Source: Planctomycetota bacterium (GTDB taxonomy: Bacteria > Planctomycetota > PLA2 > JAEUHO01). From it: a DNA stretch of 64,000 nucleotides. Made by a program: the position numbers and the translations under genes. The notes below the pieces were generated by a model. It searched no databases. It worked only from the letters and a program-made list of their open reading frames with translations, and was not told where the DNA came from. Each line of letters opens with the position of its first letter. Position 1 is the stretch's first letter. This document shows, one piece after another, positions 11,552 through 62,766 of this stretch. The stretch lies in NCBI GenBank assembly GCA_965222115.1, contig CBDCTJ010000007.1, positions 2,592,001 to 2,656,000 on the forward strand, given 5' to 3'.

Positions 11552-11741
11552 AGACGTCCACCCTTCGTGCGCGTCAATCTTTCGATGCGCACTGGGCGAA
11601 TCAACGATCCGTTGGTGCTTACTCAGGGTCTCGCGCAAATGGCTAAGCCATTTACTCTTGACGTCCACGTCGCTGGGCGAATTGTTCATCGGGCGCTTAT
11701 GCCTGAGTCCGGGTTTCGGGTTTTGGGTTTCGGGTAACGGG
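11552..11741 (-). repeat. Dispersed composite repeat family A, copy 1 (inverted; single GTGGAC unit in tract)
   Basis: Reverse complement of the core seen at 42650-42740 and 62700-62766 (GTAAATGGCTTAGCCATTTGC..GACCCTGAGTAAGCACCA.CGGATC..GAAGGGTGGAC) plus CCCG heptamers. Confidence 0.85.
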
Positions 11742-11805
11742 AAGCTCAGAGAGTTGAGGAGTGGGTCTTTGAAGTTGGGGGGCCGCTTGTTGCGGGACGT
11801 GTCCT

Positions 11806-11957
11806 GAAGAAGAGGCTCACACAAAGGGCGCTAAGGAACGAAGCGCAAAGCGTTGGGGGTGCATCCAGAGAATGTGAAGAAGTTCCTTATGGCGAAACAG
11901 TTTTGGAGAGGAAGAAGGGTCTCACCAAGGGCGCCAAGATCACCAAGCGCAGCCGTA
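11806..11957 (+). repeat. Dispersed repeat family B, uninterrupted copy (empty allele of the group II intron site)
   Basis: GGCTCACACAAAGGGCGCTAAGG|AACGAAGCGCAAAGCGTTG...GGTCTCACCAAGG..CACCAAGCGCAGCCGTA aligns with the joined intron flanks 38935-38967 + 40987-41100. Confidence 0.82.
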
Positions 11958-12250
11958 CACGTGGAATGCGCGTCCTCGCCTCCGGATTAAGAGCGCGGGC
12001 GGTCATTCACATGACGATTTGCAATCAGCAAATGATTGAGTGCCAATCAGTTCGTAATCGACTGCGAATCCATGCTGTAGGCATGGCGTGTCAAGCCCAA
12101 GGGCTTTAACCCCAGGAAAAGCACATCTCCCATCCATCGCGTCCTGTAGGTACGCCGCACGACTGCGGTATTTCGTAGCTAGACACACCCCCAGGACAAC
12201 GGCTGACGGTTGTTCCATTCGTCTCACCATCGCGCTTCCCCAATGCTTCG

Positions 12251-13123
12251 TTACGTCAACAAAAACGCTGCCACCACACCCGCCGCCAACACCGCGCAAG
12301 CGATGCCCAGCCAGAAGATTCTTGTTTGGGCGGAATGCACACGATCCACAAGCATCTCGACTTGTTTGTTGAGCACCTTTTGTGTTTCGCGATGCTGGGT
12401 CATGACTTGTTGTTGGGAGCGGTGGAACACGTTGAGTGCGCGGTTCTGAGTGTTTTGAAACGTAGCGAAGATGTCTTCCTGCGTGGTCGCCATGCTGCGA
12501 ATCATCTGGAGCTGTGTTTCGGAGTTCTTGCGTGACTGGTCAAGCCCTTCGCGAATGGCGCCTGCTTGGATCTCAAGCGTTTCGGCGAGGCGGCCCTGCA
12601 AACCATCGAGGAACTGTTGTTGTTCCTTCTGTCCCAGTGCGAGTGTGCGAAGGAGATCGGGGAGGCCGTCGAGGCGCGCGAGGACGTCGCGTGTACCACC
12701 GCCCATGTGTTCGAGTTGCTTGCTGATCTGCGCGAGGCACTCGATTTCGGCACGATGAATGCGGGGGACTTGTGCCAAGAACTCGGGTAGCGCCGAAAGC
12801 GTTTGTTGCACTTGGCCGTCGCGGCTCTGGAGCGTTTCCTTGATCGCACCCAGCAGGCGCGACATGTCTTTCATGCTCGATTGCACGCCCGTCGATGAAA
12901 GCTCCGAAGTTGAGTGGCGGCCTTCGTCCGTGCTTGTAACCACCTTGGGAATCGAAACGCCTTTCTGGGTATCAGTGCGGTGGGTATCACTGCGGTGGGT
13001 ATCATCGCGATGGGTGTCACCAGGCCCTGAGTTGGCAGGTTTCGAGTTGGCACGACCATCCCCCGCCGCCGAGGCAGCCGGCGGGCGTCGTTGTTCCGTC
13101 TTTGGCTTGCTCTCGCCTTGCAC
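12251..13123 (-). CDS. Hypothetical coiled-coil protein with C-terminal transmembrane anchor
   Basis: Q/L-rich helical body, C-terminal hydrophobic helix, disordered N-terminus with THRxD x3 repeat; start uncertain. Confidence 0.65.
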   Translation of the reverse strand: MQGESKPKTEQRRPPAASAAGDGRANSKPANSGPGDTHRDDTHRSDTHRTDTQKGVSIPKVVTSTDEGRHSTSELSSTGVQSSMKDMSRLLGAIKETLQSRDGQVQQTLSALPEFLAQVPRIHRAEIECLAQISKQLEHMGGGTRDVLARLDGLPDLLRTLALGQKEQQQFLDGLQGRLAETLEIQAGAIREGLDQSRKNSETQLQMIRSMATTQEDIFATFQNTQNRALNVFHRSQQQVMTQHRETQKVLNKQVEMLVDRVHSAQTRIFWLGIACAVLAAGVVAAFLLT

Positions 13124-13265
13124 GCGAATGTCCTAGGGTCGCTCTTTGGCCACGAGGTTGTCGTCCCCGCGCTTGCGTAGGGACGGTGCCAGCATAGCAA
13201 CGCAACCAACCGTCGCCGTCGATCGAATCGCTTCGAGCGACCTTGATACGTTGTTCGGCGTAGCG

Positions 13266-13310
13266 CCCAAGTTCTTCACCCCCAAGTTCTTCACCCCCAA
13301 GTTCTTCACC
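13266..13310 (+). repeat. Perfect 3 x 15 nt tandem repeat (CCCAAGTTCTTCACC)
   Basis: Direct reading; abuts the stop codon of the minus-strand lipoprotein gene. Confidence 0.9.
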
Positions 13311-14843
13311 CTACGGCGGGTAGATGCCGTGTGCGCTGCCGATGGTTGTGATGCCGGGCACGGTGGCCGACAAGTCGACCCCTTGTATGTCATCGGTCAC
13401 GGCGTCCAGATCTTCCTGGAGAAATTCACTTTCCGTGAGCGTCCAGGTCGTTGCGTAGCCGTTGTCGAAGAGGAACAAAAAGCGTCGGGGGAACGCGAGG
13501 CGTCCCATAGCCGTCACGCTCGCGATGCCGGTGGGGCCGCCCGCCGTGTCATCGATCACAATGACAGGGGCCACTGTGCTGTAGCCGTCGGCTAGCGTGC
13601 GAACGTCGAGCGCTTCATCGGAGGCGAATCCGGCGAGACCCACGAACGCGATTTCGGCGCCTTCTGTGCTGGTGAGGGCCGGGACGGCCGAGGCGGTCGT
13701 GGTCGTTGTACTCACGCTGGCAGAGGGCACTTGGAGATCCACGAGCGTTACGCCGCCATGCGCATTGTGGCCAATGATTGCCCGCGTTCCCTGCGCAACA
13801 ATTGGACCCGCGCCTTCGGGCAACACAAACGCCTGTACGTCGGGAAGGGCATCGTCTTGATCCACTTCCGTAAACGTCTCGAGTTCAACGAAGGCGAGCT
13901 GCCCGGTGGCGCCGTCTTCACACGAAACCAACAGATGTTCACCGTTGGCATCCAGGACCATGCCGAGTGGTTCCGACGCGCCGTCCATGGGTATCGACAG
14001 CAAGATGGCCGCAACTTCGTCGCCGACTTCCACGTCGATCTTGAACACGCGCACCATGCCTTCATCATCGTCGCGATACGCTGCATAGAGATACACGCCG
14101 TCCGGGCCAAGCACAATGGCGTCTGCACTTGCAGAGAGATCGCCGAGTCCGCCTTCGGTGGAGAGTGTGACGGGGGTCATCGCTGCGTCGCCTGGTGCGA
14201 AGTAGGCAAGTGCCGTCCCGGTTCCGTCGCCATCATTTAGTTGGACCCAAATGCGACGCATGGTCCCTGCATACGCGTCCACGATGCCAACCGGATCGCG
14301 TCCAGCCGGCGTCGCGATGCTGCCCTCCAGCGTGAGGGTATCTGCGTTTAGAAACGAAACTGTGCCCGGCGAACCCACCATGATGTCGGGCGCGGTACCG
14401 GACGTGAAGTTGTATGCAAATCGATCGAGTGCGTAGCTGCCATCTTGGGCGACGACGGCGCCCTCGCCAACAGCAACGGTTAAGAACTCATTGGGCGGAA
14501 AACCTTCACCGGGCAGCGGTCGAATCAAAATGCATGAGGGGTCATCGGGGCACATGCGCATGAACACAGGAACGCCAACGCCGTTGGCCGCAACACCCAC
14601 GAGGTCACCTCGAAGAATCTCCACGGGTCGGTCGTAATGCACGCGGATTTCTGAAAGCGCGCCATCGAGAATCTCAGCACGAGCCGGATAGGTGGCGATC
14701 ACTTCAGGTCGATCGGGTCCATCGCCACCACAGGCAGCGAAGAACGATGCTAGCGCCATGACTCCGATGGAGAGGGCGCATCGAAGGCACCTAGCGTGCC
14801 TACGGATACCGGGGAAGATGAGAGGGTTTTGTTCGCTGTCCAT
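13311..14843 (-). CDS. Acidic lipoprotein with Ig-like (Big_5/CopC-like) N-domain and beta-propeller
   Basis: Lipobox FAAC-GG; PEVIATYPA..I.V.YDRPV..Y.F.SG Ig-like pattern; YVTN-like blades; start could be later (14760). Confidence 0.7.
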   Translation of the reverse strand: MDSEQNPLIFPGIRRHARCLRCALSIGVMALASFFAACGGDGPDRPEVIATYPARAEILDGALSEIRVHYDRPVEILRGDLVGVAANGVGVPVFMRMCPDDPSCILIRPLPGEGFPPNEFLTVAVGEGAVVAQDGSYALDRFAYNFTSGTAPDIMVGSPGTVSFLNADTLTLEGSIATPAGRDPVGIVDAYAGTMRRIWVQLNDGDGTGTALAYFAPGDAAMTPVTLSTEGGLGDLSASADAIVLGPDGVYLYAAYRDDDEGMVRVFKIDVEVGDEVAAILLSIPMDGASEPLGMVLDANGEHLLVSCEDGATGQLAFVELETFTEVDQDDALPDVQAFVLPEGAGPIVAQGTRAIIGHNAHGGVTLVDLQVPSASVSTTTTTASAVPALTSTEGAEIAFVGLAGFASDEALDVRTLADGYSTVAPVIVIDDTAGGPTGIASVTAMGRLAFPRRFLFLFDNGYATTWTLTESEFLQEDLDAVTDDIQGVDLSATVPGITTIGSAHGIYPP

Positions 14844-15040
14844 GGCGACAGGGTAGCGAGGCACGCCGAAACTCCGTTGGCATTCCTTTTGGGAACTCCG
14901 GGCGATTTTGGCGGGCTCGTACGGCTCCGCGGCGGGCATCGATTGGATGCGAATCGGTGGTCGTGCCCTACTAAATCCCCATTTGTTGGGGTTCGGAGAC
15001 CCTTGACGTGGGCAAAGGGGCCGACGCTTGCTTTCGTCAA

Positions 15041-15065: not shown

Positions 15066-15127
15066 TGGGTCAGTGAACCCGTTCGTGAGTCACAGACCCG
15101 GTCCGAAATCACAGCACCGTGAGCGCC

Positions 15128-30100: not shown

Positions 30101-30732
30101 TCGGAACTCAATTCACTTCTACGCTTGCGTCGAACTCATGCCCATTCATGTCCCATTGGTCGTGACCCTCACATTTCACGAATAGCACGCCAAGTAGCAG
30201 TGTCCGTTTGTTGGGGCATTCTCAATTCGTTCACACTCCTAATGGAGCGTGACTCACGCTCCTTTCTTCATAGTTATCTTCAATGAGGGGGTCAATTAGA
30301 CCGCTTCGTGTAGAATTCATGACTCGTGCATCGCAAATCGTCCCCAATTTGGGACCATCTCGACCACTATTGTCGCTTTTTTCATCATTTGCACTTAGGT
30401 AGGTCTTGATCCTGTTAGTCACTCAGCTAGTGTGTTCAATCCGTTGAACGCAGCCGGTCGCGAAGCGCAATTTCTCAAACATTTTGAGCGATGCCCACGG
30501 CCAGTAGGTTCATCGTAATTGCCTGTAAATAGGAGGTTTACGCCAAATTTATCGCGTCGTGGTGCAGTGGGCACTACGCGTGCGTATTGGCGGGCGAAGC
30601 CGGTTTTCTGCGTGCAATTTGCCAACGACCTAACGTTGAGAAATACGTGACGTTGAGGCACACGCGCGTAGGTGGAGGTAGGCAGAGGAGCCCCACCCGT
30701 CCGGCGTCGTGAATCAACTGGAGTTTTCACCC

Positions 30733-33700
30733 ATGTTCAAACGGTTCTTCATCCCCGCGCTATTGCTCATAGCGTTGGTGCCGTTTTGCGGTGTGATTCA
30801 GGATGCGTTGGCAACGCCACCGTCCTGGGATCCCGCAGGCGCAGGATTTCAGGGTCTTCCCGACAACGACGACGACAGCGCTCGTTTCATGGTCCTTTCA
30901 GGACCGGCCAACAATTCGTTGGTTGGTACCGAAAACGGGCCCGGCGAAACGTTCGTTCAGCTTGTCTTTACGCCAGCGTCCGATAGCGACCCCATTCGGG
31001 TTGGCATTTTCGACGCGAATGGTATTGGCGTATGGGATCAGCGTGCGTTCGGCATCTTCCTGAACAAGGCGCCCAATATTCGCTATCGTCTCTATGCCGA
31101 CCCGGCGGGCGATGCGCTATCGCTTCTTCAGGATGGCGTGGCCGCCAACGATCCTTCGGCATTGGTCACGACGAACTCCGAGACCGACTACGACCCCGAT
31201 GCCACAACGGACAATGCGTGGGTTTCGTTTTTCGATCAGCCCGCGTCGGCCGTGCCCGCCGCACAGTCTGCCAATGGCTCGTACCGCTTCTTGATGCGGA
31301 TCTCCATGACGCCTGCTGCAGGATCATTCGCCTTGCAGGGGCCCGAGCGTGCCGGTCACAAGATTGCGTTTAACGGTACATACATCCTTCCCGGTGGAAC
31401 CGTGTTTGGCTTTGCCGGTGGTGCAGTGGATGAGCGCACCATTGTGGGTACCGAGAATCAGGCGATTCACGACACGCGTGATCCCAACACCTATCTCACC
31501 AAGTCGAGTGCGCCGGTTCCGGTTCAGAACGCAGGTACGCCCTACTTGTTCAACGGTGTGTTTGACTTCCACTTCCGCTCGTCCAACGCGTGCGAAGACG
31601 ACCTCGTCTTCAGCGAGGCCGATGCGGACTATCAGACGCCCACCACCGCGGGCCAGACCAAGGCCAACCCGCTTGTCGAGCCGGCCCTCGTCGGTATTCC
31701 TCCCGACAACGTGCCCTATTACTTGCGACCCGGCGACACGTTCAACTTCCGTGACGTTAGTGCCTTCCTGATTACGGATGACATTGGGAATGGCCCCCGC
31801 CCCGTACGTTGGTCGATTTACCCCGTTGCCGACATCACCACGCCCCCCGATGGTGCCAATACACCGGCTGCGCCGCAGTTCACCGACGTGGCCAACGCGC
31901 CCAGCAATCACGCGTCGATTACAGCAGCCAAGCAGGCTGGAACCTTCCAAGCCAGCACCATGCCCAAGGAGGATATCCTTGCGAACCCGGGCTTTTACCG
32001 CGTGCGTTGGGAAAGCGTGGACATCTCCAACTTTGTGTTCATGAAGTTCAATGTGGACGTTGGTACCACACCCGTCGCACCGAGGGCTAGCGGACGCATC
32101 TTCTGTGACGCCAATGACAATGGTGTTTATGACGACGGTACCGATATGCCTTGGAGCGGTGGCGCGGTCAACTTGAGCGTGCAACGCATCGACTGCCAGT
32201 CCAAGGCGCCCGTCGGTGCACCCATTCCGGTCGTTACCAATGCCGCTGGCGAGTGGACCCTTCAGGGTTTGCTTGAGGGTTGCTACACGCTTGACGTAAC
32301 CGACACCATTAGCTTCTCGCTGTCCACGGGCGTGACGCTCCCCATCGAATTCGAACTCGACGGTGATGACTGTGATAAGCAAGTCGATATCGGGTATCAG
32401 TGCACGCAGTCCATCTGTGGTGAGCTGTTCTGTGACGACAACGGTGACTGCATCTTCAATGGCAACGACGGCGTCTTGCCAGCGGGTGCTAGCGCAACGA
32501 TCGTCGTAACGCCTATCGATCCCGTGTCCAAGGACGCCATCGGCCCGGCGATCACCAAGGTTCTCGACGGAACGGACTCCCATGAGTGGTGTGTTGACGG
32601 ACTCGCCTTCGGCACCTACCTCATTACCGTGGATTCCACGCTTAATATTGTGGATAGCCCATGTGCGGTGGAGAGCTACGAACGTACGCTATCGGCCGAT
32701 ACAACAGGACAGATCGATGACGTGATCTTCCCGCTCGTTTGCCTTGAGCAGATTTGCGGTCGCATCTACTGTGATGATGACCTATCTGAGGATTACACGG
32801 CAGGCGATGACCGCGAGCTTGAAGGTGTTCAGGTAGAAGCCCGCCCCAAGGGGGAACCCACCGCCGATCCCATCACCGCGACCACCGATGAAGACGGCAA
32901 TTACTGCTTGCCCGTGCCTCCCGGTGAGTGGGTGGTCATGGTGCCCATGCCACAGGTGCCTGCGCTTGATGGCGTTTCGCCGGCCACCGGGCAGTTGCTA
33001 AGCATCGAGGTGGATGCCCGTAATGGCTCCATTGATGACATCGACTTCCGCTTTGACTGCAGCTCGACCATCTCCGGTCGTGTCTTCTGCGAAGGGCCCA
33101 ATGAGGACTGCGACGGCGAGTACGACCTAAACGTTGACGACGCGCTCGAGGGCATTGTGCTTGAGCTTGTACGCAATGGAAGTGTAGTCGCCGAAACCAC
33201 CACGATTGCCGACGGCACCTACATCTTCTCGGGTGTAGCGCCCTCAAAGGCATTTCCTTACACCGTTCGTGTCAAGGCGGGTCAGGCAGCGCTTGCTGGC
33301 AAGATCGGCCCCGCACCAGAGAACTACACCGACATCGAGGTGCCTAATGCTGGCGAGTTGACCAGCACCATTACCGGCCTCGACTTTGCCTATTGCCTAC
33401 TTGAGGTGTCGGGACGCGTCTTCTGTGAAGGTGGCCCCGGCGGCGATTGTGACGGCGACTATGACGCCGGCACCGACCAGCCGCTTGCTGGCATCGATGT
33501 CATCCTCAAGAAGGACGGCGTTCAAGTCGGTCAGCCTGCGCAGACCAACTCAGAAGGCATGTACACCTTCAATATTCTTGAGGTGGCCGACTACACGGTT
33601 GAAGTGGTGCCCGGTCAACCCGAACTTGAAGGGAAGCTTGGCCCCACGCCCACGTTCTGGGATGCGAAGTTCACCGAGCAAACCGGTGGCAATCGCTCCA

Positions 33701-36700
33701 TTCGCGACTTGGACTTTGCCTACTGCCGAACAACGGTGGCCATCTCCGGCAAGATCTGGTGCGAACGTCCCACGATTGGCAATGGCGCTGGCGCCGTGAG
33801 CCCGTGCAACAACACCTACGACCCAACCGCCACGGTGGGCGAGGCCGGTGGCGACACCGACTCGTTGCTCGCTGGCATCGAGGTCGAACTGATATCGAAC
33901 AACGTGGTTGTGGACACCGCCACCACAGCAGGCAACGGTCGTTACATCTTTGATGATCTGGCTACAGGTACCGACTACACCGTGCGTGTGAAGGCGGGCC
34001 AGGCAGCGCTGGCCTCCAAGGTCGGCCCCGCACCCGAAGACATCGATGTCAGCGTACCGCTTGACGTTTCCGACTTCAGTTCCGACGACAACGACTTCGT
34101 TGTGTGTCAGCTCTGGATTTGCCCGCTCGCCTGGTGCGACGTGGACGGAAGCGGCCTGCGTGAAGCCACGGCGACCTACACCGAGCCGGTCCTGAACCTC
34201 GCTTGGGAGATTCGTCCCCAGGGTCAGCCAAACGCTGATCCGGTGTTGAGGGGTACCTCCTGCGATTGGATTGACGCGCCGTTTACCGCGCCGAATCCGG
34301 CAGAGGGTGTGGACGTGCCTCCGGGCGCGTGGACGCTCACCATCATTTCGCCCACCGGCGAGAATGCACCCACGCCCGCCGCGGGCACCACGTTCGATTT
34401 CGTCGTCGACGAGAGTTCCACGTTCCCGTACCTGCCACACTTCCCGTATGACTGTGTCCTCACGGTCAAGGGTCGTTTCTGGTGCGATGGTGGTTCACCC
34501 GGTTGTGATGGCGTATTCCAGCCTGAGAACGACACACCGCTGGCCGGCATGCAAGTTCGTCTTGAGCAGATTGATGGCACGAATGTCGTCAATGGCCAGA
34601 CCAACGGCGCCGGTGAGTACACGCTCTCGACCAAGATTCCCGGTACGTATCGGGTGCGCTTGATTGATGCGGATCTCCCGGGCAAGACGGGGGCCTACCA
34701 CAACGGTGTGCTTGTGACCGGACCGATCGGCTCGTTTAGCGCCAACGGTGGTAGCCGCACCTACGAAGACATCGACTTCTATTACTGCCCCGAGCCGGGT
34801 CGTTTGACAGGTCTCGTCTTTGAAGAGAGCCACGAGCGTCCTTGCGACGGTGAGTTGCAGCAGGACGAAGAAGCCAATGGCCTTGCAGGCGTGACAGTGA
34901 CCATTACCGGTCCGCTTAACGCGTCAATCAACACGAACCAAAACGGCATCTACGTGTTCAACAATCTGCCTGCCGGTGACTACAACGTCACGGTGGACGG
35001 GCAGGACATGGGCACCTTTGGGGTGTCGCCGTCTTCCGCCACGTCGGTCCCAGCGCTCATCACGCCCGGTGGCACGACGACCGTCAACTTCGCGGGCTGC
35101 CGCCCAGCGAAGATTGAGGGTTACGTGTTCAAGGATCCCGTAGGCGATTGCGACGGTGAGTACGCCAACGGTGAAGGCCTTGAAAACTGGCAGGTCGACT
35201 TGATCCAAAACGGTGCGGTTGTCGCTTCAGAAACGACCGATGCGTTTGGCAAGTATGAGTTTGGCGACTTGGACGCTGGCGATTACACCGTCGAGCTCCA
35301 AATCACCGAACCTACCGCCGGTGACAACTGCTACCTCGTGAGCCCCGCCGACAAGCAAGTCGACGTATCGCTCCTGCCCGGTGAAACCGAGCGCGTGGAC
35401 TACGGTCTTTGCGCACAGGCACTTGCCGGTCGCGTGTGGAGCGAGGTCTTCGAGCAGCTCAATGGCGTTTGGGAGCCCACCGAAGACACGCCGCTCGCCG
35501 GTGTTTCGGTAAGCATCGAAGGTGTTTCGGGTGATGCCCTTGGCTACACCGACGAAACCACCACCGACGCGCAGGGTAAGTATCGTTTCGACAACTTGCC
35601 CACGGGTCAGTACGAGATTGTTGTTACGGATAATGCCGGTAACCAAACGATCCTATCGGGCCTCGAGGCACAGGACCCCACGCTTCGCGATCCGTCGCTG
35701 GCACCGGGTGACTTTGTTGACGATCAGGACTTCTACTACACGAGCACGATGCAAGCTGTATCGGGCCGCGTGTGGAAGGAGACCTTCGGCGGCACCAACG
35801 GTGTGTGGGAGCCCACAGAGGACACGCCCCTGGCCAACGTTGAAGTTGAAATCACCGGTGTAACGGGTGATGCCGTTGGATACAACGACACCACCACCAC
35901 CGACAATCAAGGCTTCTACTCGTTTGACGACATTCCGGCCGGTTCGTACTTGATCAAGATCACCGACAGCGCTGGCAATGTGACCATCGTGGAAGGCCTC
36001 ACCGGCCCGACGCCCGATGAGCGCACGCCGAGCGTGGGTGTGAATGAGACGGTGCCCAACCAGGACTTCTATTACGTCGATCCCACGCAGTCGCTAAGCG
36101 GCCGCGTGTGGCAAGAGGTCTTCGAGGATCTCAACGGCATTTGGGAGCCCACGGAAGACACGCCGCTGGCGGGTGTCAACGTGACCATCGAGGGCACATC
36201 GGGCGACGCGCTCGGCCAGACGTTTGATACCAACACGAATGCGGACGGGTTCTACCAATTCGACAACATTCCCACCGGTACCTATGACGTCTACGTCACC
36301 GACAACGCAGGCAATCAGGCGATTCTTGGCGAGCTCATCGCTCAGGATCCCACGTTGCGCCAGCCCACGGTGAATCCCGGCGACAACATCGTCGAGCAGG
36401 ACTTCTACTACACCGGCACGATGCAGACGCTCTGCGGTCGTGTGTGGCAAGAAGACTACGCCGAGCTCAACAGCATTTGGGATCCCGACAATGAGAACGA
36501 CACGCCGCTCGCCGGTGTGGAAGTGAGCATTACGGGTATTGCCGGCGACGCGGATGGTTACAGCGACACGATGCTTACGGGCGACGATGGCCGCTACTGC
36601 TTCCAGGGCATTCCGGCCGGAACCTATCGGGTTGTGGTCACGGACAGCGCTGGCAACGAGACCATTCTCGGTACGCTCGACGCGGTGCCGCCGACCGAGC

Positions 36701-38873: not shown

Positions 38874-38967
38874 AGTTCGTTTTGGGGCGGGACGCCTTGG
38901 GAGTACGGGCGCTTGCTGGCCGCACGGCGCATCGGGGGAAAGAAGGCTCACACGAAGGGCGCAAAGA

Positions 38968-40986
38968 GTGCGACAGGCCAAGCCTGGACAAGGAGGAACT
39001 CATGACGTGACGAAACCTTGTGATGGAGCCCAACGGGTAACCAATCCCGTCCGGCCAAGCTGACCGAGCAGCCGGAAGCAAACCTAGCGCGCTCTGTGGG
39101 TAACTGCGGGGTGTGAAGCACTAGGCAAGCGTGTGTGCGGGCTGTGTGATTGAGCCTCGAAATTCTTATGACTGCGGTGGCCGACGATGTTCTTTGATCG
39201 GAAGGCACCATCGGAGACGAGCGTGTAGGTCTGCTCCCTCCGGCCCGCCGGGGTCTATGAGCAGGGCACGTACACAAAGGGGCTTCCCCAGGAACCTGTG
39301 AGATCCCATGCTGTCCTTCGAGAACTCGGCGCGGAAGGGCCGTAGACACTTCCAGCAATACGCAGCACGAGGCACACGCTTGTGTTGGGTGCGAAACAAG
39401 CGTGTGAAACGAAGGTACGGCGTCGCGAAGTCACCCGAGCGGCGCTGGACGCAGGTGGGAAGTCGGAGCGCTCCGTAGTACCGATGAACGGGGGGAACCT
39501 TTCACCAAGGGACCCTCGGGAGGGATGGGAGCGCCGCTATGTGTACTCCGTAGGAGGGAACCATGACAGAGATCCCAAGCTTTGATCCCGTGTTACCGAA
39601 ACTCCGACGGATCGCAATGCTTGCGAAGCAATCCCCGGAGATGGCGTTCACGTCGTTGAACTCCGCTCTGGACATGACGTTACTGCGTGAAGCGCATCGG
39701 CGAACGCGCAAAGGAGGCGCAACGGGCATAGATCGCCAGACGGCGCAGGATTACGCGAAGGACCTGGAGAGCAATCTCCAGAGCCTGCTAAACCGTGCCA
39801 AGTCCGGCGACCGTTACCGCGCACCTCCTGTGCGACGTGTGCATATTCCCAAGGACAAGCCCGGGGAGACTCGGCCCCTGGGGATACCGACGTTTGAGGA
39901 CAAGATCCTCCAACGCGCGGTGGCCATGATTCTGGAATCCATCTACGAACAGGACTTTGACTCCTGCTCGTACGGTTTCCGGCCTGGCCGCTCGGCACAC
40001 GATCTGTTGGCTGCACTTCGTAACTCGATGATGAACATGAACGGCGGGTGGGTGCTTGAAGCCGATATCCGCAAGTTCTTCGACAGCGTCGATCACGCGC
40101 AGCTAATGGACGTGCTTCGCAAGCGGGTGCGAGATGGTGTGATTTTGCGATTGATTGGCAAGTGGCTAAATGCAGGTGTCATGGAGGATGGCCGCGTGAG
40201 CTATCCCAAAGGAACTGGTACGCCGCAAGGCGGAGTGATCTCCCCCGTGTTGGCCAACATCTTCCTCCATGAAGTGTTGGACACCTGGTGGAAAGAAGAT
40301 GTCGCCCCTCGCATGAAGGGGGAGGCGCATCTCTTTCGTTACGCAGATGACTTCGTGATTGTATTCGCTCGTGAAGCGGATGCACGGCGTGTGATGGACG
40401 TCGTTCCAAAGCGCTTCGACAAGTACGGCCTTGCCATCCACCCAGATAAGACTCGCTTGGTGCGATTCAAACGCCCGCGGCACTACGACTCCGATCATGA
40501 TTCGGAAACGTTCGACCTGTTGGGCTTTACGCATCTATGGAGTCGATCCCGTAAGGGATACTGGGTGATTCGGCAGTTGACCGCACGAAGTCGGTATCGC
40601 CGCGGTCTGACGCGGATGTCCAAGTGGCTCCGCTCCGTCCGCCACCAACCTGTGCATTGGCAGCGTACAAAACTGGCACAAAAACTCCAGGGGCATTACG
40701 CCTACTACGGGGTGACTGGCAATACGCGTCGGCTGCACAACTTCCGGCGGGAAGCCATACGGCTTTGGAGGTACTGGCTGTGCCGCCGTTCACAGCGCGC
40801 CAAGATGCCATGGGATCGTTTCAACCGACTCCTACAGCATCACCCCATTCCACCATCACGTGTCACGCGCTCGATCTATCGCGCCACCTAATCGGCGACC
40901 CACATAGCGAGGAGCCGGATGCGGTAATCCCGCACGTCCGGATCTGTAGGGGGGCTGGGGAGGGAAACCTCCCCGGCCTACCCGAC
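38968..40986 (+). mobile_element. Complete group II intron (~2.0 kb)
   Basis: 5' GTGCGACAGG; domain V GAGCCGGATGCGGTAATCCCGCACGTCCGGATC (~40912-40945); domain VI with bulged A ending CTACCCGAC; EBS1 TCTTTG (39191-39196) complementary to exon CAAAGA (38962-38967); both ends supported by the empty allele at 11836/11837. Confidence 0.93.
39563..40891 (+). CDS. ltrA: Group II intron reverse transcriptase/maturase, no HNH endonuclease domain
   Basis: RRVHIPK..RPLGIP..DKILQ, SYGFRPGRS, DIRKFFD, GTPQGG.ISP.LANI.L, YADD, FDLLGF, domain X GHYAYY. Confidence 0.96.
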   Translation: MTEIPSFDPVLPKLRRIAMLAKQSPEMAFTSLNSALDMTLLREAHRRTRKGGATGIDRQTAQDYAKDLESNLQSLLNRAKSGDRYRAPPVRRVHIPKDKPGETRPLGIPTFEDKILQRAVAMILESIYEQDFDSCSYGFRPGRSAHDLLAALRNSMMNMNGGWVLEADIRKFFDSVDHAQLMDVLRKRVRDGVILRLIGKWLNAGVMEDGRVSYPKGTGTPQGGVISPVLANIFLHEVLDTWWKEDVAPRMKGEAHLFRYADDFVIVFAREADARRVMDVVPKRFDKYGLAIHPDKTRLVRFKRPRHYDSDHDSETFDLLGFTHLWSRSRKGYWVIRQLTARSRYRRGLTRMSKWLRSVRHQPVHWQRTKLAQKLQGHYAYYGVTGNTRRLHNFRREAIRLWRYWLCRRSQRAKMPWDRFNRLLQHHPIPPSRVTRSIYRAT

Positions 40987-41140
40987 AACGAAGCGCAATG
41001 CGTTGCGGGGAGATGTTTGAGAATGCGTGGAGATATTCGGAGGCGGAACTGGGCTTGGAGCGGGAGAAAGGTCTCACCAAGGACACCAAGCGCAGCCGTA
41101 GCTGAGAAATTCTCCTCCGAATGGAGATGAATGTTCCTGA

Positions 41141-41611
41141 TCACAAGGTGAGTTTCAGTCCTTCATGACTGGGCACGAATCCCAAGGATTGATAGAACGA
41201 GTGGGCTTCGGTGCGTTGCTTGTCGGTTGTGAGTTGGGCCAGCGCGCATCCTCGTTCGCGCGCCCTATGGAGCACGGTTGAAATCAACTGCCTCCCGTAA
41301 CCCGAACCGCGGTAGGCACGTGCCACACGAACGCCTTCGAACTGGAGTCGCTCCGAGGCGTATCGCGAGAGCCCAGGAATGTACGTGACTTGGGCCATTG
41401 CCACAATGTCGTCGCCGAGCACGCCCACAACGATTTCGTTTCGAGGATCTGCGCAAATCGCATGCATCGCTGCGATGTACTTGGGTCGATGCTCTGCCTC
41501 GACTCGCTCGCGGTGCGCCCCTAGCTCATCGTCTGCCAAAAGCCCTACGAGTGTGGGAACGTCTTCGACGGTACCTGACCGAAATCGAAGAATCGGGTCG
41601 CCGCTACTCAT
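41141..41611 (-). CDS. GNAT family N-acetyltransferase
   Basis: LLADD.LG..RE; EGVRV...RG.G.G; QLTTDKQR..AH.FY..LGF..SHEG. Confidence 0.9.
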   Translation of the reverse strand: MSSGDPILRFRSGTVEDVPTLVGLLADDELGAHRERVEAEHRPKYIAAMHAICADPRNEIVVGVLGDDIVAMAQVTYIPGLSRYASERLQFEGVRVARAYRGSGYGRQLISTVLHRARERGCALAQLTTDKQRTEAHSFYQSLGFVPSHEGLKLTL

Positions 41612-41752
41612 CGGATGCTCCTGGATACACATTTGACGATGCCTAGTCTATTTGTAGAAATTCCAGGCGAATATCGGGCGCCTATTCACGAAATTCGGCG
41701 TCGTGAAACTCGCATTTGGTGCCAGGCCTAGAGTCGCAGAATTCGTGTTCTA

Positions 41753-41933
41753 TTCGTTACCCGTTACCCGAATCCCGTCACCCGGACTCAAGTGTGATCG
41801 CTCAATGATCGATTCGCGCCGGTTCGTGGACGTGGACGTGGACGTGGACGTGGACGTGGACGTGGACGTGGACGTGGACGTGGACGTGGACGTGGACGTG
41901 GACGTGGACGTGGACGTGGACGTGGACGTGGAC
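41753..41933 (+). repeat. Family A copy 2: CCCG heptamers + linker + perfect (GTGGAC)18, ending 2 nt from the four-helix-bundle stop codon
   Basis: CCCGTTA CCCGAAT CCCGTCA CCCGGACTCA; tract 41826-41933. Confidence 0.92.
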
Positions 41934-41935
41934 GA

Positions 41936-42310
41936 TCAAGGCTCGTCGAACCTTCGTTGAAGCACGAACAACATAGCGGCGGATCGCTCTAGTATGTTCA
42001 TGACACCTGAGATTGCGGCCTCGCTGGAGAGTCCGAGTAGTAGAGCCTGATGTAGAGCGGCAATGGCCTCGGTGCGTTCGGCGTGTGCGATGTCGTACGC
42101 TTTGCGTTTCTCGGCTGGCCGTCGTTTCGAGAGTCCTTCGGCGACGTTTAGGGCAACGCTGACACTTGCGCGCCTGAGCTGATCTGCGAGCTTTGCGTGG
42201 CCCCGAGGCCATGCCGCGCAGGTTGCTACGCACTCGACTGCCGCGGCCTGCGAAGCACGGTAGACATCGAAGCGTTTGAGGTACTCGAGCGTGGAAGTCG
42301 CGCTTGTCAT
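41936..42310 (-). CDS. Four helix bundle protein (23S rRNA intervening-sequence protein / Avd-like fold)
   Basis: 124 aa; FDVY..S, LADQLRRASVSVALNVAEG..R, IA..E..E..AAL signature; GGAG RBS before ATG 42310. Confidence 0.88.
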   Translation of the reverse strand: MTSATSTLEYLKRFDVYRASQAAAVECVATCAAWPRGHAKLADQLRRASVSVALNVAEGLSKRRPAEKRKAYDIAHAERTEAIAALHQALLLGLSSEAAISGVMNILERSAAMLFVLQRRFDEP

Positions 42311-42510
42311 GATGGAACTCCGGCGTGAAAGGAGCGCAAGCCGTTTGCTCGCGTGTGCCCTTCGCAAAAGAGCCGAAGGCGAAGGAGGGCGCACGCGAGC
42401 GGACCGTACGAACAAGGTCCCGCGTGGACTCGGCAACCCGTTCCATGCTGGAGTTCCATCACAAGCGGCGCCCGCGCGTACCGGTCGCGCATGAGTTACC
42501 GATGGCCTGC

Positions 42511-42740
42511 CCCGAATCCGTCACCCGTTACCCGAATCCCGTCACCCGGACTCAAGAGTGAGCGTCCGATAATCGATTCACGCAGGCTCGTGGACGTGGA
42601 CGTGGACGTGGACGTGGACGTGGACGTGGACGTGGACGTGGACGTGGACGTCAAGAGCAAATGGCCTTGCCATTTGCGCAAAGACCCTGAGTAAGCACCA
42701 GCGGATCTTTGATCCGCGCGGTGCGCATCGAAGGGTGGTC
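42511..42740 (+). repeat. Family A copy 3 (full): heptamers + (GTGGAC)10 + hairpin core
   Basis: Tract 42590-42649; core GCAAATGGC-CTT-GCCATTTGC..GACCCTGAGTAAGCACCAGCGGATC-TTT-GATCCGC..GAAGGGTGGTC. Confidence 0.92.
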
Positions 42741-42795
42741 GTCGTAGGCCAAGGGCGCGAATCGGTGCCAGGAGCGAACGTGTGGAAGGGGTGAG

Positions 42796-43218
42796 CTACT
42801 CGCGCCGTACGTACTTCTGCAGCTCTTCCACATGCTCCTGCTCTTCGCGCACCATGCCGCGTGCGTACTCTTCAAGGGCGACTTCGTTCTCGGGAATGAG
42901 TTTGAGGAGCGCAAGGTAGCCATCAACGGCGGCCTTCTCTGCTTCGAGGTTGGACTCAAGCATTTCCTGGACATTGAGGCTCTTTGTTTCCCAGGCCTTT
43001 TGGGCCTCAATATTGGGCTGACTGCCAAGCGAAACGATCTTCTCGCCAAGTTGAATGGCGTGCTGCAGGCTCTCTTGCGCATTCGCCCGCAGGTAGTTGA
43101 CGATGGGTTCACGGCCCCAACCGAAGACCATGAAGCTGTGGTGGAGGTAGCGATTGACGCCTTCCATTTCCATGGCGAGCAGACGATTGAGCTGATCGAT
43201 GAGCGCTTGATTTTGCAC
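42796..43218 (-). CDS. bfr: Bacterioferritin / ferritin-like protein
   Basis: GTG start after GGAGG; LN.LLA.E...RY..H, ES..HA..L.EKI..LG..P, E..AV..Y, EEQEH ferroxidase pattern. Confidence 0.85.
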   Translation of the reverse strand: MQNQALIDQLNRLLAMEMEGVNRYLHHSFMVFGWGREPIVNYLRANAQESLQHAIQLGEKIVSLGSQPNIEAQKAWETKSLNVQEMLESNLEAEKAAVDGYLALLKLIPENEVALEEYARGMVREEQEHVEELQKYVRRE

Positions 43219-43286
43219 GGGGCCTCCGAAGGTCAGGGTCAGCCGCAGAGGGTAGCCCGAGTCGTGGCTGAGGCTACGATCCTCCC

Positions 43287-43847
43287 GTGGGAACATTTCG
43301 CCGCTACACCACCGAGGAATTGATCGCGAGCCGACCCACGATGGGGGAACGGGAACGTACGCGTCTGCCCACCATTTTGCTGCTCGACGACATTCGATCG
43401 GCCAGCAACGTGGGCTTGATTTTCCGCCTCTGCGATTGCCTGAACATCGCCGAATTGTGGTTGGGGGGCATCTCGCCGTATCCCGGCGTATCGGACCGTG
43501 CCATGGCCCGCATGGAGAAAACGGGTGTGGGGGGGAGTCTCGAATCGGTTCCTTGGCGCCATGTGCCCGATGCATTCGAAGCCGTTCGCGCCAGAAGGGC
43601 AGATGGCTGGCGCGTGATTGCCGTCGAGCAGGGAGTGCCGTCAATCAGCTTGAAGGAATGCGACTTCGGCGAGCGCGCCATAATCGTCTTGGGCCACGAA
43701 CGTGCGGGCATTCGCGACAGCATTCTGGGTATCGCAGACCAGGTCGTGTCGCTACCGATCTATGGCGTCACCAACAGCCTAAACGTCGCTACCTGCGCCG
43801 CCGTCGTGCTCTACCACGCCGACACCAAGCTCACCCGCCCCTCCTGA
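43287..43847 (+). CDS. TrmH/SpoU family RNA 2'-O-methyltransferase
   Basis: LDDIRSASNVG.IFR, IVLGHE..GI, LPIYG..NSLNVAT. Confidence 0.9.
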   Translation: MGTFRRYTTEELIASRPTMGERERTRLPTILLLDDIRSASNVGLIFRLCDCLNIAELWLGGISPYPGVSDRAMARMEKTGVGGSLESVPWRHVPDAFEAVRARRADGWRVIAVEQGVPSISLKECDFGERAIIVLGHERAGIRDSILGIADQVVSLPIYGVTNSLNVATCAAVVLYHADTKLTRPS

Positions 43848-56124: not shown

Positions 56125-56230
56125 CCGTGGCCGTGGACGTCGAGAGCAAATGGCTTTGCCATTTGCACGAGACCCTGAGTAAGCGCCAGCGGATCTTTGA
56201 TCCGCGCAGTGCGCATCGAAGGGTGGACGT
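56125..56230 (+). repeat. Family A copy 4 (core with ~2 hexamer units, no heptamer arm)
   Basis: GTGGCCGTGGACGTCGAGAGCAAATGGCTTTGCCATTTGCACGAGACCCTGAGTAAGCGCCAGCGGATCTTTGATCCGCGCAGTGCGCATCGAAGGGTGGACGT. Confidence 0.9.
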
Positions 56231-56308
56231 TTAGGAACCGCTGACACCGTCGATTGAAAGAACCGTCGCGAAGGGAATGCGAGATTGGCGGATGGCGCTC
56301 GTCCGGAA

Positions 56309-59654: not shown

Positions 59655-59774
59655 GAATATGCACGGGCGAATCCATTCTCGCGCGAGATTCGCGAGCCCC
59701 GACGGCCGTCTGTTGGCTACGATGGAGGTCGTGTGCCGCTCACGGATGCACGGTTCAGATCTAAGGAACGTCCC

Positions 59775-60104: not shown

Positions 60105-60128
60105 CGAAGCGAATCCAAGGACACACTC

Positions 60129-60710
60129 ATGACTTCCGTTCCCCTGCGCCACTTTGTGGAAGAGGCGTTTGGGCGCTACGGTCCGCAATTCGGTGGACAC
60201 TTTCCCGCAGGATTTGATTGGTTGGCGCTATGCGCGTCGGCACCACACCTCGCAGAACGCATCGACGTGGACGCGGTGGATTCAAGCGACGAAACGCAGG
60301 CGGCACCTGTACGCAAACGCGCATTTCTCTATTTTCAATTTGGATACATTGTGGCGTTGTCGGCGCTTGCCCTGCGCGCGCCCTATCCGTGGGCGCCTGA
60401 AGACGCACTTGAGTTGTTGATGGGCCCACTGTCGGGCGAACAAGAGTCGGCCTTTGTGGCGCTATGCGAATCGGTACTCGGTCCCGTCGAACACGCCTTG
60501 GCGACCGACGACGACGGATCCGCCGAACTCGTTGAGGGTCTCGTTGATCTGGCCGAAGTCGCTTGGTCGGCCACGCTGGATCTCATGGCCGAGACCATCC
60601 CAGATGCCAGCGACGCGCCTGCCGTGCGTGCCGTGTGTGTGGGCCTCGCTCGCACATCGTCGGTCTTGGCCGCGTTTCGTTGGGTTGTGGGTGCGCCTAC
60701 AGCCAAGTAA
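60129..60710 (+). CDS. Hypothetical alpha-helical protein
   Basis: AAGGA RBS; operon position between iscA and the TPR gene. Confidence 0.55.
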   Translation: MTSVPLRHFVEEAFGRYGPQFGGHFPAGFDWLALCASAPHLAERIDVDAVDSSDETQAAPVRKRAFLYFQFGYIVALSALALRAPYPWAPEDALELLMGPLSGEQESAFVALCESVLGPVEHALATDDDGSAELVEGLVDLAEVAWSATLDLMAETIPDASDAPAVRAVCVGLARTSSVLAAFRWVVGAPTAK

Positions 60711-60733
60711 GCATTGGTGTATTCTTTGACGCT

Positions 60734-61408
60734 ATGAGTACGCCATCCGAACTAGCTGAGGCACTCGACACGATTCGTGAGCTTCGACGTGCGAAGAAGG
60801 CCGACGAAGCGCGCAAACACATCGAGACGCTATGCGCGGCGATCCCAAAGGACGCAGATCCATTGGAGCGCGCAAAGGCCCTCTTGGTTCGTGCGGACAT
60901 GCGCTCACACGCCGATGAACACGATGCGGCGATTGAGGCCTACCTCGCCGTGATTGCCGAATTGGACAACGTGGGCGAAGGTACTCAGGCGGCGATATCC
61001 GTAAACAATCTCGCGTATCACTACGCCATGCTCGACCGCCGCGACGAGGCGATCGACGCGCTCCGCGAATCGGTGGAGCGCCGTCGCGTCCTTGCCAAGC
61101 AGCCCTACCTCTTGCGCGCCTACTTTAATCTCGGCTATTGGTATCTCGAGTGGGATCGGCTGGCCGAAGCCGAGAGTGCATTTCGCGTTGCGATTCAAAT
61201 GGGACGGGTGTGGCAGGAGCCAGGTGAGCTGGGGAAGTCACTGCTTTACCTCGCGCGATGCGTGGCACGTGCCGACCAAGCTGACCGTGCAATACTGGCC
61301 TACACGGAAGCGATTCCGAATCTTCGTGCTGCCGACCAAGACGCCCTTGTGACCGAGGCTACGAATGAACTGGCGTCGCTGTCGTCTGTGCCTGGTGGTG
61401 CGCGCTAA
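60734..61408 (+). CDS. Tetratricopeptide repeat protein
   Basis: NNLA..Y......EA, FNLG..Y......AE..F..A, LA......A...Y..A repeats. Confidence 0.78.
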   Translation: MSTPSELAEALDTIRELRRAKKADEARKHIETLCAAIPKDADPLERAKALLVRADMRSHADEHDAAIEAYLAVIAELDNVGEGTQAAISVNNLAYHYAMLDRRDEAIDALRESVERRRVLAKQPYLLRAYFNLGYWYLEWDRLAEAESAFRVAIQMGRVWQEPGELGKSLLYLARCVARADQADRAILAYTEAIPNLRAADQDALVTEATNELASLSSVPGGAR

Positions 61409-61515
61409 CCAACGATTTTGGGCGCGACTTCGCCCGTTGCATTTGCTCGTCGCGGAGTACTATCACGCGCGCGATCCCTACGCATCCCGAGTCCGCGAGA
61501 GGAGTACGAACCGCC

Positions 61516-62496
61516 ATGACGAAGGTCGAGAAGAAGGACATTGAACGCGTCGTCATTATCGGATCCGGCCCTGCGGGCTGGACCGCCGCAATCTACGCCG
61601 CGCGCGCCAATCTCGAACCGCTCGTCTACGAAGGTTCACCGTCGCAAGAGATGATTCCCGGCGGGCAGTTGATGTTCACGACCGACGTCGAGAACTACCC
61701 CGGCTATCCTGAAGGCGTGCAGGGCCAAGACATGATGGCCGACTTCAAAAAGCAAGCCGTGCGATTCGATACGCGCGTGATCACCGAAGACATCGTGAAG
61801 TGTGAGTTCGACAAGACGCCGTTCGTGTTGCACGACGAATCGGGAAATACCATCAAAGCCCATTCCGTAATCATCGCCACCGGCGCGAAGGCCAAATGGC
61901 TGTGGCTCGACAATGAGCAGCGCCTTGCGACGAGCGGTGGCGGTGTATCCGCTTGCGCGGTTTGCGACGGGGCGTTGCCGGTGTTTCGCGACGAGCACTT
62001 GATGGTTGTGGGTGGGGGTGATACGGCCATTGAAGAAGCGTCCTACCTCACCAAATACGCAGGCAAAGTGACCATCATTCACCGCCGCGACGAACTTCGC
62101 GCCAGCAAGATCATGCAGCAGCGCGCGTTTGATAATCCGAAGATTGAGTTTGCGTGGAACAAGCAAGTCGTTGATGTGCACGGCGACGAATTCATCACGG
62201 GTGTCAAAATGAAGGACACCAAGACGGGCGACGAAAGCGACGTGGATTGCAAGGGACTCTTCATTGCAATCGGTCATCAGCCCAATACGAAGTTTCTCGA
62301 AGGTCAGATCACGACTGACGAGTCCGACTACATCATTCATGCCGAACCCGGCACCACGCGAACCAATATTGAAGGCGTTTTCGCCGTTGGGGACGTTGCC
62401 GACAAGATGTATCGCCAAGCCGTAACCGCCGCAGGCTCGGGCTGTATGGGTGCTTTGGATGCCGAGCGTTGGTTGGCGGCGAAAGGGATTCACTAG
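61516..62496 (+). CDS. trxB: Thioredoxin-disulfide reductase
   Basis: IIGSGPAG.TAAIY.AR, GGQL..TT.VENYPG, SACAVCDG, GGGDTA.EEA, HRRD, GVFA.GDV.D..YRQA.TAAG.GC. Confidence 0.96.
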   Translation: MTKVEKKDIERVVIIGSGPAGWTAAIYAARANLEPLVYEGSPSQEMIPGGQLMFTTDVENYPGYPEGVQGQDMMADFKKQAVRFDTRVITEDIVKCEFDKTPFVLHDESGNTIKAHSVIIATGAKAKWLWLDNEQRLATSGGGVSACAVCDGALPVFRDEHLMVVGGGDTAIEEASYLTKYAGKVTIIHRRDELRASKIMQQRAFDNPKIEFAWNKQVVDVHGDEFITGVKMKDTKTGDESDVDCKGLFIAIGHQPNTKFLEGQITTDESDYIIHAEPGTTRTNIEGVFAVGDVADKMYRQAVTAAGSGCMGALDAERWLAAKGIH

Positions 62497-62525
62497 CCAG
62501 AATCCTACGGAGTGGAGATGGGTGT

Positions 62526-62766
62526 CCGTTTCCGGTACCCCGATACCCGATACCCGAATCCCGTCACCCGTTTCCCGTATCCCGTCACCCGGACTCATAA
62601 GTGGACATCCGATGATCGTTCGCGCCGTTCGTGGACGTGGACGTGGACGTGGACGTGGACGTGGACATGGACGTGGACGTGGACGTGGACGCGGACGTGG
62701 AGAGCAAATGGCCTTGCCATTTGCGCGAAGACCCTGAGTAAGCACCAGCGGATCGAAGGGTGGACC
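62526..62766 (+). repeat. Family A copy 5: ~8 CCCG heptamers + 11-unit GTGGAC tract (2 variant units) + core with internal deletion
   Basis: Tract 62631-62696; GCAAATGGCCTTGCCATTTGC..GACCCTGAGTAAGCACCAGCGGATC|GAAGGGTGGAC. Confidence 0.92.

Follow-up and report, generated by a model that had tools for sequence, protein, structure and literature searches.

Family A repeats of a Planctomycetota genome are a mosaic of a terminus-centred left module and a folded core whose conserved half recurs in five phyla

Repeat copies and genes in the window

The window, a stretch of 64,000 nucleotides of a Planctomycetota bacterium (C7:2592001-2656000, C7 being the contig; assembly of 4.55 Mb in 7 contigs, 90% complete), holds five copies of a dispersed repeat, family A, which is a mosaic of two modules, an L-module and a core. 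Read in its own orientation, a full element comprises 3-9 C-rich heptamers (CCCGNNA), a 45-nt box (...CCCGGACTCAAGTGTGAGCGTCCGATNATCGATTCACGCCGGTTC), a hexamer tract (GTGGAC)n, the motif GTCRAGAG and then the core, in which hairpin 1 (GCAAATGGC-NNN-GCCATTTGC) is followed by GCGAAGACCCTGAGTAAGCAC, hairpin 2 (CAGCGGATC-TTT-GATCCGCG) and CAGTGCGCATCGAAGGGTGGAC. The initial annotation had described five copies with a fixed core; it missed the mosaic nature of the family, the four-helix-bundle genes that accompany it, the occurrence of the core in several phyla and the polarity centred on the terminus. The parts of the five copies and the gene enclosed by two of them are distributed over the window as follows.

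11556..11662, minus strand: copy 1 core, hexamer-linked type (nhmmer match C7:2603571-2603672)
11663..11741, minus strand: copy 1 L-module, with one hexamer unit, the 45-nt box and a heptamer tract (G-rich on the plus strand; period 7 at 11710-11735)
41753..41825, plus strand: copy 2 L-module, heptamers (CCCGTTA...) and 45-nt box, without core
41826..41933, plus strand: copy 2 (GTGGAC)18, perfect, ending 2 nt short of the stop codon of the PF05635 gene
41936..42310, minus strand: type-1 four-helix-bundle gene, 124 aa, PF05635/TIGR02436, antisense to the L-modules
42311..42510, minus strand: leader of the type-1 gene, ~200 nt, conserved, with a long hairpin
42511..42589, plus strand: copy 3 L-module, heptamers and 45-nt box
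42590..42649, plus strand: copy 3 (GTGGAC)10, perfect
42650..42740, plus strand: copy 3 core, complete, with hairpin 1, GACCCTGAGTAAGC, hairpin 2 and GTGCGCATCGAAGGGTGGTC
56127..56138, plus strand: copy 4, two hexamer-like units (GTGGCC GTGGAC), with heptamers and box absent upstream
56139..56230, plus strand: copy 4, complete solo core; an ATG at 56277 lies 47 nt downstream
62526..62630, plus strand: copy 5 L-module, ~9 heptamers and 45-nt box, 30 nt past the stop codon at 62496
62631..62696, plus strand: copy 5, hexamer tract of 11 units, including two variant ones (ATGGAC, GCGGAC)
62697..62766, plus strand: copy 5 core, hairpin 2 deleted (...GCGGATC|GAAGGG...)

All five annotated places hold repeats, but the core is present in only four, copy 2 having none, and the 14-mer GACCCTGAGTAAGC, regarded as the invariant motif of the core, likewise occurs four rather than five times in the window (~0.24 expected; four occurrences reached in 0/100 shuffles). 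The tract lengths of 1, 18, 10, 2 and 11 units are borne out by the reading of the window and by Tandem Repeats Finder (18.3 and 10.5 copies at 100% match, 12.0 copies at 93%), and hairpin 1 carries the loops CTT, TTT and TTA as described. Hairpin 2 is complete in copies 3 and 4, but is degenerate in copy 1 and deleted in copy 5. Copy 1, in which hairpin 1 reads GTAAATGGC-TTA-GCCATTTGC and the 3' end is partly duplicated, does adjoin the tRNA-Ala gene (11452-11527), beginning ~26-28 nt beyond it (26 nt, where 25 had been given), and copy 3 terminates with GGTGGTC. The copies are all intergenic, as annotated, although the PF05635 gene between copies 2 and 3 had been overlooked. The array formed by these two copies is flanked on the outside by genes for a GNAT acetyltransferase and a ferritin-like protein. 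The sequence GGTGCCAGG, found on either side of this array (near 41720 and 42765), was rejected as a target duplication and belongs to family D, a separate 32-nt repeat.

Genome-wide distribution and modular build

A profile search of the genome with the core gave 44 matches, 36 of these at E<1e-12, and a covariance model, as proposed in the initial annotation, gave 39 matches. Forty-five copies of the 45-nt box and 41 (GTGGAC)n tracts of at least two units could be distinguished, with the longest tract comprising 33 units (198 nt). The two modules occur both together and apart. L-modules lack a core wherever they stand between two PF05635 genes, and cores without an L-module are represented by window copy 4 and by 17 copies with other first hairpins.

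Alignment of the 36 strong cores separates two groups. In 19 of them hairpin 1 is of the GCAAATGGC type or a close variant and hexamer units are found on both sides, and these copies share common junction motifs with small variants. The remaining 17 have the same 3' half with a quite different hairpin 1, for example GATTCCGAGGGTCGAAGACCCGATGGAATC or GTCCAAGGGC-ATA-GCTCTTGGAC, and are bordered by other conserved flanks (GCGTGTCGGAGA... and ...GGGCCGAAYYA), without hexamers, box or heptamers. The flanks GCGTGTC... and ...GGGCCGAA of this hexamer-free group occupy the positions of GTGGACGTC and GGGTGGAC in the hexamer-linked copies, and because the hexamer-free cores have conserved sequence there, GTGGACGTC and GGGTGGAC look like parts of the element and not like a duplicated target.

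This bears on the proposal of the initial annotation that the core had been inserted into the hexamer with duplication of the target. In its fuller form, GTGGAC tracts would be the insertion sites of the core, a miniature transposable element that either duplicates GTGGACGT or carries a tract-extending template. The hexamer units on both sides of the core are in keeping with such an element, with about two far-side units present in C7:2443682, C7:2668600 and C7:2939124. However, the conserved flanks of the 17 hexamer-free cores speak against target duplication, and the junction motifs shared by the 19 hexamer-linked cores are equally explained by one ancestral fusion that was then copied. Nor do the four head-to-head pairs of cores behave as miniature inverted-repeat transposable elements, a candidate that was rejected: the first hairpins of the two arms differ, the interiors of 130-400 nt are unrelated and flanking direct repeats are absent. 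No transposase was found near the cores in a survey of neighbouring genes. Insertion is consequently regarded as quite improbable, and a built-in template for tract extension is not supported.

The L-modules follow a common array grammar, in which L-module, gene, L-module and gene alternate and all L-modules of one array have a single orientation. Cores are as a rule restricted to solo L-modules and to the hexamer end of the final L-module in an array, with the exception of two loci where a core-bearing L-module also precedes a gene. The same grammar is repeated at more than 30 places in the genome, with perfect tracts of 0 to 33 units at otherwise similar junctions. In a search for a driver gene beside the cores, only the PF05635 genes and spurious open reading frames (ORFs) through the repeats recurred. 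Three L-modules or cores abut the 3' ends of tRNA genes with the hexamer/core end toward the tRNA (C7:2316281-2316460, C7:2846500-2846614 and window 11452-11741), the two sites outside the window having been read by eye from their flanks.

The long perfect tracts, or the copies themselves, might be artefacts of assembly. Among public sequencing runs, none from RNA is listed for the stretch, and four runs of one sample carry it as short contigs; those over 41940-43400 break at the repeats and leave 42577-42625 next to uncovered, so that such repeats are evidently hard to assemble. However, each copy has flanks of its own and the sequence varies from copy to copy, tracts of up to 198 nt lie inside the long contigs of a 7-contig genome, and the grammar recurs at more than 30 places. 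An artefact is thus considered extremely improbable.

PF05635 genes and their L-module arms

The gene at 41936-42310 encodes a protein matching PF05635 (23S rRNA intervening-sequence protein; 6.3e-15) and TIGR02436 (6.5e-14). Using tblastn with this protein, ten close copies with 83-94% identity (type 1, antisense to the repeats) and eight further copies with ~41-43% identity (type 2, same sense as the repeats) could be distinguished, and a Pfam search of the genome likewise gave 18 PF05635 matches. In 16 of these 18 cases, parts of the L-module flank the gene on both sides at a distance of at most 350 nt. Conversely, 26/45 boxes lie within 350 nt of a PF05635 gene, with the other 19 being solo. 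The spacing is characteristic of each type: the stop codon of type-1 genes lies 2-6 nt from a hexamer tract, ~230 nt separate their start from the heptamers of the L-module that follows, and type-2 genes start ~200 nt past a tract.

All 18 genes are intact, with dN/dS values of 0.11 for type 1 (45 pairs, 10 copies) and 0.07 for type 2 (28 pairs) at a dS of ~0.6. Such purifying selection at this level of synonymous divergence identifies them as long-standing copies that have been maintained, as opposed to recent duplicates. The type-1 leader is itself structured. In the window (42296-42515, minus strand) its minimum free energy (MFE) is -100.4 kcal/mol (z -2.92), and the start-codon region pairs with an upstream complement in a stem of ~17 bp over the start codon, which is conserved among the other type-1 copies. 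A scan of 41600-42850 for sigma-70-type promoters yielded no sites, against a shuffle mean of 0.6.

Among 40 relatives the number of PF05635 genes is patchy, ranging from 0 to 21 matches. Arrays of 6- or 7-mers stand beside the gene at 4/9 of the relatives' PF05635 loci, here numbered L214, L216, L217 and L218. These comprise inverted heptamers in L214 and L216, several (CGTGGC)n arrays opposite complementary ones in L217, and hexamers together with (GGGGATC)n between two divergent genes in L218. BLAST searches with the cassette of this genome returned only short GTGGAC/GTGAAC tracts in the relatives.

Clustering at the terminus and replication polarity

The cumulative GC skew of C7 has its minimum at ~0.58 Mb and its maximum at ~2.76-2.78 Mb, which are taken as origin and terminus, and the gene-strand bias flips at the maximum. 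The window precedes the terminus by 115-180 kb. Every one of the 28 box or core clusters on this contig falls within 520 kb of the skew maximum, a region that makes up 34% of the contig. Furthermore, L-module clusters are co-oriented with replication in 20/22 scored cases (one tie; p=1e-4; two clusters on contig C3 included), compared with 59% of the genes in the region. Since the L-clusters point with replication, the written strand of the L-module is the leading-strand sequence and hence the lagging-strand template, and the combination of arm polarity and terminus confinement points to a replication-linked step or to selection. The density of the arrays reaches eight box/core features within 5 kb, and copy number and spacing are irregular.

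The L-modules might accordingly be host sites for the organisation of the terminus domain, read by a DNA-binding or translocating protein, possibly the pentameric four-helix-bundle protein itself, and would then not be selfish at all. The confinement of all 28 clusters, the flip of orientation at the skew maximum in 20 of the 22 scored L-clusters and the purifying selection on all 18 associated genes would fit such a role. The irregular copy number and spacing with dense tandem arrays, the variation in tract length from 0 to 33 units and the patchy number of PF05635 genes among relatives, which is typical of selfish genes, fit it poorly, and terminus regions commonly collect mobile DNA. A role in terminus organisation is therefore viewed as very improbable.

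Folding of the core

The structure examined for the 3' half comprises ACCCU/AGGGU, a tandem G-A motif, one G-C pair, GCAC/GUGC and hairpin 2. Across 33 aligned copies this structure is 93.8% paired (22-47% for slid controls), with changes on both sides in 10/17 pairs, a result reached in 0/500 shuffles; the aligned cores are paralogues of one genome and the covariation counts are thus not independent events. Hairpin 1 folds in 33/33 copies despite a sequence that is entirely different from one subfamily to another, and it mostly lies inside a short closing stem (GUC/GAY). The suggestion of REP-like selection on secondary structure made in the initial annotation is hereby strengthened. On the written strand G-U/U-G pairs number 20 and A-C/C-A mismatches seven, omitting one pair that is unformed in the hexamer-free group, and from this excess it follows that the better fold is that of the written strand. 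The folding energies of window copies 3 and 4 are -44.7 and -44.2 kcal/mol (z -4.51 and -4.23), and copy 5 has a z of -2.17. In the MFE folds of copies 3 and 4 the left, hexamer-derived GACGUC pairs with GACGU on the right, which provides a structural reason for the hexamer unit on the far side of the core.

At gathering score, Rfam models matched only a group II intron, a tRNA and a cobalamin riboswitch in the window, and at E<=10 the region 41700-42800 gave two chance-level matches, none of them for the core or the leader. Hammerhead, k-turn and sarcin-ricin motifs were rejected in an informal comparison by eye, their key positions not fitting.

The conserved half of the core in other organisms

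As a folded motif of 50-60 nt, the 3' half of the core is conserved letter for letter across five phyla. It was searched for elsewhere as the frame CCTGAGTAAGC-N18-34-GCGCATCGAAGG, with exact matches to 11 and 12 nt, a design that fixes 23 nt and returns only instances identical at these positions. Neither the exact frame nor the covariance model had a match in 60 relatives (28 of the same family, 11 of the same order and 21 of other families of the phylum). The exact frame was found in 111 stretches of metagenomes and 46 of species-representative genomes, the latter belonging to five phyla by their record titles. These include Bacteroidota (Chitinophagaceae, Rikenellaceae, Bacteroidales, Ignavibacteriales and Balneolaceae), Acidobacteriota, Gemmatimonadota (Gemmatimonadaceae), Bdellovibrionota (Bdellovibrionales) and one other member of the Planctomycetota. 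In the literature, among the 15 papers listed out of 23 and judged by title and the start of the abstract, the conserved 11- and 12-mers occur only in adapters, primers and aptamers.

The variable positions retain the fold in these organisms. The pair outside CCU/AGG is complementary in 107/107 unique instances (U-A 72, C-G 31, U-G 4; shuffle mean 86, maximum 94) and the next pair outward in 77/107 (shuffle maximum 73), and an inner hairpin of at least 7 pairs is formed in nearly all 107 instances. The written strand folds better in 74/83 instances, partly due to the fixed G-A motif. Rfam models matched only tRNAs in 20 loci of other organisms that carry the conserved half.

The surroundings of the motif recur as well. 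On soil contigs, tandem arrays of ~85 nt start right after a tRNA gene and are followed by a small ORF of the GIY-YIG family. In 12/80 metagenome loci the motif is directly followed, on the same strand, by a GIY-YIG gene, and in 8/46 genome loci, which fall in three phyla by record titles, one lies within 600 nt. A tRNA gene is nearby in 4/20 and 9/46 loci. The neighbouring small nucleases match two UPF0213 structures, and none of the NCBIfam models hit them above its cut-off. No PF05635 gene was found among the 150/312 neighbouring ORFs of these elements that were scanned.

These features raise the question of whether the core is a structured RNA expressed from the written strand, such as a processing or stability element, a cis-regulator or a small RNA, with the CCUGAGUAAGC/GCGCAUCGAAGG loop binding a protein or making tertiary contacts. 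The covariation, the restriction of G-U pairs to the written strand and the better folding of that strand in other organisms all argue in this direction. The element elsewhere always presents the sense strand, upstream of the GIY-YIG ORF in 12/12 cases and right after tRNA genes, and would therefore be transcribed. The identity of 23 nt across five phyla is also unusual for REP-like DNA. However, the core has no Rfam match at either threshold, part of the strand difference stems from the tandem G-A motif, and cores form head-to-head pairs four times. A tally of orientation relative to flanking genes, which the initial annotation had also called for, gave 23 cores in the same and 13 in the opposite direction to the upstream gene; it is based on a crude, home-made gene caller and is not decisive. 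The absence of the core from 60 relatives and its presence in distant phyla fit a travelling element better. An RNA function is thus a serious candidate, albeit an unlikely one.

Interpretation

The account favoured here, to which we would give about an even chance, is that family A is a selfish mosaic of two non-coding modules which were fused once and have been copied together since, with the core acting in folded form. The L-module would be the repeat arm of small cassettes built around a PF05635 four-helix-bundle gene. Such cassettes would be gained, lost and rearranged by recombination between their arms, leaving solo arms such as copies 1 and 5, and slippage or unequal exchange would alter the length of the tracts. 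The hexamer-linked core would have arisen by one fusion and spread with the arm. The core would itself belong to a family of folded elements that has spread horizontally and is marked by two hairpins and a purine-rich internal loop under conservation, and it most likely acts as a folded single strand of DNA or RNA, in the manner of REP or NTS-type repeats. In this genome, which has no small GIY-YIG nuclease gene, the core may be orphaned or co-opted.

Several observations sit uneasily with a selfish mosaic. No movement was seen, in a set of relatives that includes no same-genus genome and hence allows no empty-site or presence/absence comparison. Nor was a driver enzyme found: a PF01541 search of the assembly, itself 90% complete, gives only a 608-aa ORF, which is taken to be UvrC. 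Core-only clusters are co-oriented with replication in 6/11 cases (two ties); polarity is a property of the arms and not of the core, and because the core has none, the single-stranded DNA argument drawn from polarity applies to the arms only. The complements of copies 3 and 4 reach -42.0 and -40.9 kcal/mol, so that both strands are nearly equal in this respect. The 45-nt box is only modestly conserved, with a mean pairwise identity of 0.70 compared with the 0.56-0.61 expected at the synonymous divergence of the genes, and gave no consensus fold on either strand. The arms of one cassette are 92% identical to each other and up to 95.5% identical to another locus, and thus bear no signature like that of long terminal repeats. 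The arms are direct here and inverted in L214 and L216 (two of the four array-bearing loci of relatives), so the logic of the cassettes may differ. Finally, the tract lengths rest on one assembly.

A bolder reading would have the four-helix-bundle ring protein and its heptamer/hexamer arms form an undescribed replication-coupled system, in which the protein reads its own repeats on the fork-exposed strand, cassettes are copied or retained in one polarity only and pile up where the forks meet, and a pan-bacterial nuclease-target hairpin has been captured. This is speculative and, in our judgement, improbable. If it were true, (GTGGAC)n would be the working part and no mere by-product, serving either to load the protein as an array or to set the register of recombination.

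PF05635 is a very large protein family for which we know of no established function. The 18 conserved copies, set in a fixed, polar and terminus-confined repeat grammar, offer handles on the strand, the repeat and the end that may be involved. In the 3' half of the core we see a candidate recognition site for a group of small, uncharacterised GIY-YIG nucleases. Furthermore, the perfect hexamer tracts at paralogous junctions, with lengths of 2 to 33 units, are candidates for rapidly changing sites of use in strain typing or phase variation.

Other repeats and features of the genome

A group II intron occupies 38944-41004 of the window, with Rfam matches at 39041-39263 and 40910-40986 and a reverse transcriptase ORF (PF00078) at 39563-40891. 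It has three genomic copies with ~99.6% identity and sits inside a further repeat, family C (...GGCTCACACGAAGGGCGCAAAGA | AACGAAGCGCAATGCGTTG...). Family C (AAGAAGAGGCTCACACAAAGGGCGCTAAGGAACGAAGCGCAAAGCGTTGGGGG) is found at window 11790-11870, C1:521100-521300 and C5:77300-77400, often beside cores. Just upstream of the intron lies a giant ORF of 2688 aa (30709-38775, plus strand). Family D is a hairpin of ~32 nt (CACAATTGGTGCCGGGAGCGAATTGTG-like) that is often tandem, for example at window 62916-62965 and C7:1066196-1067466 and in many other places; its pattern has 66 matches genome-wide, many of them chance-like. Together with a Y1-transposase match at C7:1066506 it looks like a REP/RAYT-type pair. 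A cobalamin riboswitch (11059-11303, minus strand; 64.5 bits) precedes a 602-aa ORF (9253-11061) without a Pfam match. Contig C6 (48,116 bases) has a G+C content of 39.7%, compared with ~59% elsewhere, and may be a plasmid, a phage or a binning contaminant.

Comparison with known repeat systems

BOX elements of Streptococcus pneumoniae consist of a left module, variable tandem units and a right module, are dispersed between genes and are predicted to fold. Family A resembles them in these respects. The repeated unit of family A measures 6 nt compared with tens of nucleotides in BOX, for which we know of no link to a gene family.

REP/BIME mosaics and REPIN doublets, which are associated with RAYT transposases, are likewise short structured intergenic repeats that occur singly, as inverted doublets and as mosaics. 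Family A shares with these the conserved stems, the occurrence as single copies, inverted doublets and mosaics, and the clustering with other repeat families. In contrast to REP, the core spans ~95 nt, has two hairpins and a conserved internal loop, and its conserved half is shared to the letter across phyla. Two matches to the Y1 transposase (PF01797) occur in the genome (C7:1066506 and C7:1411691), and no core, box or hexamer tract was found near either. The weaker match (35.6 bits, C7:1066506) is flanked by family D and not by family A or a further family, B. The core was hence rejected as a RAYT-linked REP, since no Y1 transposase gene flanked by these repeats is present.

A third comparison concerns nuclease-linked repeats. 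Chenal et al. 2025 (PMC11893778) showed that single-stranded DNA is cut by small single-domain GIY-YIG proteins (cd10448) at oriented hairpin repeats flanking their genes. Like the NTS/Ssn-related motifs described there, the core is an oriented hairpin repeat with a conserved non-palindromic flank and many copies around genes, and its relatives in other phyla lie beside a single-domain GIY-YIG gene of ~100 aa, as in Ssn. Unlike Ssn systems, this genome is without a small GIY-YIG gene, and the neighbouring nucleases elsewhere match UPF0213. The degenerate SRM pattern, as given in PMC11893778, matches 0/44 core matches here and 2/126 conserved-half loci elsewhere. The whole genome has 19 matches to it, and the first Mb has 5, compared with 6-12 in local shuffles. 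The core thus resembles an Ssn-type repeat in its associations and is not a member by the published definition, though the supplements of that paper may list closer variants.

PF05635 proteins were first seen inside rRNA intervening sequences. Of the features of such cassettes, a PF05635 ORF and tandem arrays on both sides of it are present here. Inverted arms enclosing the ORF in a stem are not, the arms of an array having the same orientation and only the leader pairing with the start region. A location inside a 23S rRNA gene does not apply either, as the window copies lie between protein-coding genes and the window has no rRNA match. The Coxiella intervening sequence (PMC4990558) has two or three tandem heptamers before the ORF, depending on the strain. 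The cassettes of this genome agree with that S23p intervening sequence in the PF05635 ORF, the heptamers, a stem involving the 5' region of the ORF and a suspected selfish or mobile nature. They differ in standing outside rRNA in arrays of up to several genes, in having direct and not inverted arms with an additional hexamer microsatellite and 45-nt box, and in being terminus-centred and polar.

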